Source: a phage
DNA: 64,000 nucleotides
NCBI GenBank assembly: GCA_014816185.1
Contig: GCA_014816185.1_4095.1
Strand: one strand, 5' to 3'
Shown here: piece after piece, positions 51,556-52,489 of the stretch
How positions within the stretch are numbered: position 1 is the stretch's first letter
Layout of the letters: the number at the start of each line of letters is the position of its first letter
The notes under the pieces: generated by a model
Seen by the model: the letters and a program-made list of their open reading frames with translations, nothing else
Told to the model about the DNA's origin: nothing
Database searches by the model: none
Program-made: the position numbers and the translations under genes

Positions 51556-52064
51556 TTCTATGCACTGATGAAAATTATGGGATTGGTTGTAATAATTCGA
51601 TACCTTGGTACAGTAAAGCTGACTTTGAGCACTTTAAAAATGAAACATCAGGACGAATGATTATTATGGGGTATAATACGTGGAAATCACTTCCAAAAAA
51701 ACCACTTCAAAAACGTTTGAACGTAGTCTTAATTTCTCGTGAGTGTGATGATATTGAAAAATATGCTGATGATAGTAATGTTATTTTCTTACCAGAAAGG
51801 AGTTTACCTGAATTGATTCAGTTAAACCCCGAATGTGTTGTTATTGGTGGTGCTAAGATTTATAAAGCTGCTCTTCCTTACGTTAATGAGATTATTCACA
51901 GTACCGTCAAGGGTACATATACATGTGATACTTTTGTTCGATTTAAGGACGATAAGCGTGTAAAATTATCAAGATTTGAGTCTAAAACATTAGCTGACGG
52001 AACGATTGTTGATTATTACGAGATTGTTCATGTTTACGATGATTGGGTGGATGCATACCAATGA
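51543..52064 (+). CDS. frd: dihydrofolate reductase
   Basis: 173 aa; [35 protein letters not shown] match E. coli DHFR and remembered T4 Frd. Confidence 0.88.
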
Positions 52065-52489
52065 AAATAGACTTATATACTGATGGTTCTTGCCTAGGTA
52101 ATCCAGGTCCTGGGGGCGTTGGTATTGTTGTAGTTATTAATAATCTAATCCAGGACAAACTGTCATTTGGTGATATAATGACTACTAATAACAAAATGGA
52201 GTTACAAGCAACTATTGCTGGTATTCAATATGTTAAGGATACATATGAAAACCCTGAAATAGTTGTTTACACTGATTCCAACTATGTAGTTCGTGGTATG
52301 AATGAATGGATAGCTGGTTGGAAAAAACGTAACTGGAATAATGTAAAGAATGATTCTTTATGGAAAATTCTGGATGAAATCAGTTCAGGTTGTAAATTTG
52401 AATGGGTTAAAGCTCATGCAGATAATGTTTATAATAACCTTGCTGACCAACTTGCACGTACTGCTGCTGAGGAAATGAAAGGCAGTTAA
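52061..52489 (+). CDS. rnhA: ribonuclease HI (cellular RnhA type)
   Basis: ORF 52043-52489; start ATG 52061 overlaps frd stop (ATGA); [37 protein letters not shown] align with E. coli RNase HI. Confidence 0.9.

Follow-up and report, generated by a model that had tools for sequence, protein, structure and literature searches.

In Escherichia coli, the removal of RNA primers normally follows a two-enzyme route that is shared between RNase HI and the 5' nuclease of Pol I. RNase HI cleaves inside the primer RNA and cannot remove the ribonucleotide at the RNA-DNA junction; the process is completed by a 5' nuclease, such as T4 RNase H or the 5' exonuclease of Pol I. Among phages with very large genomes, a survey of 224 jumbo phages reported RNase H1 in group 1 and in several members of subgroup 2.2, together with flap nucleases in subgroup 2.1 and a few 2.2 phages, and read both as primer-removing enzymes (PMC7824862). 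Nucleus-forming jumbo phages also encode a protein with the PF00075 fold, PhiKZ155 / Nlp2, for which RNase H activity has been shown in vitro (PMC12571901). PhiKZ155 carries an extra structured C-terminal domain and localizes to the phage nucleus, and its essential role does not depend on catalysis (PMC12571901), whereas the RNase HI described below is a bare catalytic domain. Sharanji, a close relative in the lineage of the phage studied here, forms no nucleus-like compartment (PMC11895373).

The sequence analysed, from this point on referred to as the window, is a 64,000-nucleotide stretch of phage DNA (contig GCA_014816185.1_4095.1). A preliminary description had proposed that it encodes a cellular-type, RnhA-like RNase HI with the DEDD active-site residues in addition to a T4-type nuclease of the FEN-1 family, and had called for a profile search and a careful alignment as checks. 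The profile search supports the proposed identity, as the product of the ORF at 52061-52489 matches Pfam family PF00075 (RNase_H) over residues 4-136 of 142 with a score of 126.5 bits (E=1.2e-36), against a cutoff of 25.8 bits. The same protein matches PHROG 531, 'Rnase H', with an E-value of 1.6e-50, and dozens of PDB chain sequences of E. coli RNase HI with E-values of about 1e-31; by BLASTP, it is 43.7% identical to E. coli RnhA. Judged by its sequence, this is a genuine and intact bacterial-type RNase HI, with a match that goes beyond chance. An alternative TTG start at 52043 was ruled out, as homologues and all deposited annotations begin at the ATG (M-K-I). The features of the locus are collected in Table 1.

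Table 1. Features of the RNase HI locus and the second nuclease gene, in window coordinates
Feature	Position	Strand	Details
FEN-family 5'-3' exonuclease ('T4-type RNase H')	20131..21117	+	328 aa; PF02739, PHROG 107, PDB 1tfr
Small protein, PHROG 28138 (function unknown)	51187..51555	+	122 aa; PHROG match 7.3e-75; first gene of module
Dihydrofolate reductase (DHFR) CDS	51543..52064	+	173 aa; PF00186 9.9e-30; PHROG 316 4.6e-44; directly upstream of RNase HI
Possible Shine-Dalgarno-like GGGTGGA	52044..52050	+	within DHFR 3' end, 11 nt before ATG; weak, sequence only
ATGA overlap of RNase HI start and DHFR stop	52061..52064	+	read from sequence
RNase HI (type 1 RNase H) CDS	52061..52489	+	142 aa; D8, E47, D72, H119, D129; PF00075, PDB, AF2/Foldseek
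Dda-like SF1 helicase CDS	52496..53860	+	454 aa; PHROG 325 'Dda-like helicase' 7.1e-123; Pfam AAA_30, AAA_19, PIF1, UvrD_C_2

The active site was followed through an alignment of the phage protein with 47 homologues, reaching down to 45% identity. The DEDD set, with its accompanying His, proves to be intact: D8, E47, D72 and H119 are invariant across the 48 sequences, while D129 is Asp in 43 of the 48 and Asn in the other five. These residues correspond to D10, E48, D70, H124 and D134 of the E. coli enzyme, respectively. The substrate-contact positions N43, N44, S73 and N125 are likewise invariant in the 48 sequences. An AlphaFold2 model built on the same alignment reached a pLDDT of 96 and a pTM of 0.90, and when it was searched against the PDB with Foldseek, the top 50 matches were all RNase HI or RNase H1 structures, the best being 3aa2 (TM 0.89, rmsd 1.4 A).

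Among the closest known counterparts is E. coli RNase HI (2rn2, 1rnh and 3aa2), which is also a single-domain type 1 RNase H, of 155 residues as compared with 142 in the phage protein. The two share the D-E-D-H-D set and the substrate-contact positions, which are N44, N45, S71 and N130 in E. coli. They differ by an insertion of three to four residues before strand 4 in the phage protein, by the loss of a C-terminal tail of about 12 residues and by the form of the basic protrusion, or handle. The loop between helices C and D of this protrusion is five residues shorter in the phage enzyme, where 11 residues stand in place of the E. coli segment WKKRGWKTADKKPVKN. The basic residues of helix C, K88, K89 and R90, are kept in the phage protein, as is K96, and it is the loop following them that is shortened; the E. 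coli stretch TADKK, around K95/K96, is missing at about residues 92-95 (window 52334-52345). The shortening is common to most of the jumbo-phage clade and to some other short RNase HI proteins, while the full-length loop is kept in Eneladusvirus-like proteins and in the closest full-length-matching cellular proteins. Such a change in the handle could alter substrate affinity. The phage protein scores 146.1 bits against the NCBIfam equivalog model for ribonuclease HI, NF001236, below the trusted cutoff of 160. This score and the short loop mark a divergent member of the RNase HI family, and not a non-member.

The gene lies within a compact module on one strand. The small ORF that opens the module, whose counterpart in Klebsiella phage K64-1 is annotated as 'membrane protein', overlaps the start of the DHFR gene by 13 nt, and the Dda-like helicase ORF begins 6 nt past the RNase HI stop codon. 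The junction with the upstream gene is as the preliminary description had it: the RNase HI ATG (52061-63) overlaps the TGA (52062-64) of an ORF that is indeed DHFR by its PF00186 match. From this 4-nt overlap we infer that translation of RNase HI may be coupled to that of DHFR. The module genes may also be co-transcribed. A promoter scan of 49500-55000 revealed no enrichment (30 promoter-like sites versus 31.1 expected), and a scan of the same region for terminators returned none downstream of the module; scanned over its full length, the window gave no match to Rfam and no tRNA. One promoter-like site, AGGACA-16 nt-TATAAT preceded by TG (10/12 matches), falls within the RNase HI coding sequence at 52152-52179 (+). 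It probably arose by chance, because the regional count of such sites is no higher than in shuffled sequence.

The second nuclease claimed for this phage is real as well. The product of the ORF at 20131-21117 matches PF02739 (5_3_exonuc_N) with 60.1 bits (E=2.8e-16, cutoff 34.3) and PHROG 107 with an E-value of 1.1e-41; among PDB sequences it matches T4 RNase H (1tfr, 1.2e-5) and T5 exonuclease (1exn, about 3e-5; 3.5e-5). It is also 100% identical to gene 1 of phage 121Q, annotated as 'RNase H-like 5'-3' exonuclease'. Like T4 RNase H (rnh), it is a FEN-family 5'-3' exonuclease that keeps most of the carboxylate motifs. In an alignment of the window protein with those of T4, K64-1 and Vibrio phage JSF12, the residues E119-A-D121-D122 (EADD), D142/D144 (DxD) and D202/D205 (DxxD) are invariant. 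Identity to the T4 enzyme is only 26.8% over 62% of the protein, and the T4 D71 position is not conserved in the alignment. We take the active-site carboxylates of T4 RNase H to be D19, D71, D132, D155, D157, D197 and D200, with D71 lying within the segment 'IDN'; this segment aligns to a three-residue gap in the window protein (VFC---AEG, residues about 54-60, window 20290-20310), and the alignment of the N-terminal Asp is ambiguous. A Glu near this gap may stand in for D71. T4 RNase H and the RNase HI at 52061-52489 share neither fold nor mechanism.

Over the 3 kb that surround the RNase HI gene, identity is 100% to Escherichia phages SHEFM2K and SP27, 99.6% to PBECO4 and 96.5% to 121Q; all four are Asteriusvirus jumbo phages of about 350 kb, and the window itself belongs to an Asteriusvirus of this kind. 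In PBECO4, gp462 is an RNase HI 100% identical to that of the window and occupies the same position between DHFR and Dda. The gene is already annotated in several records, PBECO4, 121Q and SP27 among others, as 'ribonuclease HI', 'Rnase H' or 'rnhA', and the identical or orthologous genes of 121Q (gp43), SP27, EJP2, fHe-Yen9-03 (g312), GAP32, CBB and XaC1 sit in the same slot and show no substantive difference. PBECO4, EJP2 and Yersinia phage fHe-Yen9-03 all have the small ORF followed by DHFR, RNase HI and Dda, and Xanthomonas phage XaC1 has the last three genes without the small ORF; start and stop codons of DHFR and RNase HI overlap in each of these four. Synteny of the DHFR-RNase HI-Dda block extends over the RaK2-like clade, with Asteriusvirus, Eneladusvirus and XaC1 all keeping it. 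Under the match, GAP32 has annotated genes for DHFR, RNase HI and Dda, and CBB, 7t3 and Munch have annotated genes for RNase H and Dda. Identities to EJP2, Yen9-03 and XaC1 are 54-59% for RNase HI, comparable to the 38-55% of DHFR, and the Dda proteins of relatives are 60-77% identical to that of the window.

This distribution is that of an old gene, vertically inherited and resident in the RaK2-like jumbo phages. The possibility that the phage acquired it recently from its host was considered and rejected, because the base composition of the gene (GC 34.7%, GC3 23%) matches the phage average of 34.4% and because the identity to the RnhA of the host E. coli (43.7%) is no higher than that to the RNase HI of other proteobacteria (45-50%). 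A megablast search of the module against 5,426 complete E. coli genomes and the plasmids of PLSDB returned no match, and the gene is therefore not a prophage or plasmid gene. Proteins 97-99% identical to the phage RNase HI do carry the label 'Escherichia coli' at NCBI; they lie on contigs of 335-351 kb, which are presumably jumbo-phage contigs inside draft bacterial assemblies.

One relative departs from this pattern. In K64-1 (Alcyoneusvirus), the slot between DHFR and Dda is occupied by a 194-residue Mom-family protein (PF25680, 6.5e-37; NC_027399, 135456-136040) with no similarity to RNase HI. A search of the whole K64-1 genome for RNase HI gave a best tblastn E-value of 1.5 and no match with an HMM built from 120 homologues, which scored 1.1e-66 against the window as a positive control. 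The FEN, DHFR and Dda genes are all present in K64-1, with Dda 77% identical, and by the FEN gene this phage is nearer to the window than Eneladusvirus is (82% versus 72% identity). With no RNase HI in K64-1 and a Mom-family gene filling the slot there, RNase HI is an exchangeable accessory gene, not core to the replication system and dispensable in at least one sister genus. The same ATGA junction is found in PBECO4, EJP2 and K64-1, and in K64-1 the gene downstream of it is Mom, which begins with the same first three codons (M-K-I) as RNase HI does here. Because the DHFR/Mom pair shares this junction, the overlap is a property of the slot and not of RNase HI. The exchange itself resembles a neat replacement of one cassette by another at a gene boundary, in jumbo-phage genomes that are otherwise collinear.

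Two Asteriusvirus records from chicken faeces are also interrupted in this region. Salmonella phage SD-1_S14 (OR699183) lacks the equivalent of window 51980-52306, comprising the 3' end of DHFR and RNase HI residues 1-82, and SD-6_S16 has a deletion of window 52719-52829, part of Dda. Both records have 22-44 gaps per 1.7 kb and are 25-40 kb shorter than their relatives, and the deletions may be assembly artefacts instead of marking natural RNase HI-null phages. The SD-1_S14 deletion was set aside as proof of dispensability, given how rich in indels the SD-* records are.

What the enzyme would do for the phage is suggested by its company. The window encodes a T4-like replisome, with a B-family polymerase, primase, DnaB-like helicase, SSB, UvsX and topoisomerase II, and as it includes a primase, the RNA primers are presumably made by phage enzymes. 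We consider it probable that the RNase HI is catalytically competent and cleaves RNA in primers and in R-loops of the phage DNA, with the FEN nuclease finishing primer removal. During infection, RNase HI would nick the RNA strand of hybrids that form on phage DNA, both the primers synthesized by the phage primase and the R-loops that arise where transcription is heavy. The last ribonucleotides or flap would then fall to the FEN-type nuclease at 20131-21117, and ligase would seal the remaining nick. Such a scheme would reproduce the way in which E. coli splits this work between its RNase HI and the 5' nuclease of Pol I. Possession of its own RNase HI could lower the dependence of the phage on host enzymes during very large DNA synthesis; in a related phage, an estimated 33.6 Mb or so of DNA is made per cell (PMC11895373). 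The RaK2-like jumbo coliphages carry what would be a near-complete, host-independent toolkit for Okazaki-fragment maturation: the window encodes primase, RNase HI and FEN nuclease, and the related K64-1 has an annotated ligase. RNase HI is not essential to the replication system, because K64-1 manages without any. A literature search returned no experimental or activity work on this RNase HI or its close relatives, and neither the phAPEC6 virion-proteome paper nor the Sharanji paper mentions the protein. By analogy, the nuclease-independent essential role of PhiKZ155 warns against reading function from fold alone (PMC12571901).

Other roles were weighed against primer and R-loop removal. RNase HI might make primers, trimming the R-loop transcripts of origins to leave 3'-OH ends while the neighbouring Dda opens the fork. 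There are precedents, as RNase HI processes the RNA II transcript of ColE1 into a primer and T4 has R-loop-dependent origin initiation. The gene adjoins Dda, with a gap of at most 37 nt or an overlap, in PBECO4, EJP2, fHe-Yen9-03 and XaC1, and in GAP32, CBB, 7t3 and Munch the matched region has annotations for both genes. We nonetheless regard such a role as unlikely. K64-1 keeps Dda where the Mom-family gene replaces RNase HI, with no RNase HI elsewhere in its genome, so the two genes are neighbours because they share a slot and not because they must act together. The surroundings yielded no origin or R-loop element, and the count of promoter-like sites is close to expectation. The absence from K64-1, along with the SD-1_S14 record without residues 1-82, would also fit a passenger that the phage could do without, which now does little or nothing and is being lost. 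This we judge highly improbable, given that the catalytic and substrate-contact residues D8, E47, D72, H119, N43, N44, S73 and N125 are invariant in 48 homologues spanning identities down to 45%, that many genera retain the gene in this position, and that the SD-1_S14 deletion may be an artefact.

The remaining possibility looks to the host. RNase HI could serve in counter-defence by destroying the RNA-DNA hybrids of immunity systems (retron msDNA or the cDNA of defence reverse transcriptases), by mimicking or replacing host RNase HI at RnlA-RnlB or LsoA-LsoB, or by acting independently of its nuclease in the manner of PhiKZ155. RnlA is activated by host RNase HI, which also recruits the antitoxin, RnlB (PMC5308261), and PhiKZ155 shows that a protein with an RNase HI domain can be essential for something other than catalysis (PMC12571901). 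The swap of the K64-1 slot for Mom, a family annotated as DNA-modification enzymes, would fit an accessory conflict locus. Set against these points, the catalytic residues are strictly conserved, the protein has no extra domains, and its neighbourhood is one of replication and nucleotide metabolism. PADLOC, run on the four proteins of the module, returned no match for RNase HI, DHFR or the small ORF and only generic SF1-helicase matches for the helicase; a literature search found no link between phage RNase HI and anti-defence. A counter-defence role thus seems very unlikely. If it were real, phage RNase HI would join the counter-defence factors, and nothing that we found points that way. It is a far-fetched extension that the enzyme, besides its replicative task, also engages host RNase HI or hybrid-based systems, substituting or competing at RnlA-RnlB or LsoA-LsoB or destroying retron and DRT hybrids, with the short handle loop as an adaptation to that role; were this so, the exchange of RNase HI for Mom in Alcyoneusvirus would mark an exchangeable host-conflict locus.

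By tblastn, RNase HI homologues occur in 561 phage records, including phages of Vibrio, phiKZ-like phages of Pseudomonas, phages of Erwinia, Staphylococcus and Aeromonas, T5-like phages and others. The T5-like Vibrio phage JSF12 combines an RNase HI of PF00075 with a 5'-3' exonuclease (flap nuclease) of PF02739/PF01367, the same pair as in the window, with the RNase HI gene lying among genes of nucleotide metabolism. JSF12 belongs to an unrelated family (Demerecviridae), its RNase HI is about 35% identical to that of the window, and the gene is not linked to DHFR or Dda. The pairing of RNase HI with a flap nuclease is thus not unusual for large phages. Two unrelated nucleases had been taken to suggest an extra demand for primer or R-loop removal; this over-reads the observation and is not needed, because RNase HI together with a 5' nuclease is the normal E. 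coli route and because an unrelated T5-like phage has the pair as well. Both the gene and the pairing were already known, the one being annotated in public phage genomes and the other forming a pattern published for jumbo phages, and the result matters little beyond correct annotation. In JSF12, ribonucleotide reductases and PhoH are found near the RNase HI gene, with thymidylate synthase and DHFR 11 kb away, a placement that echoes that of the jumbo-phage RNase HI beside DHFR and RNR.
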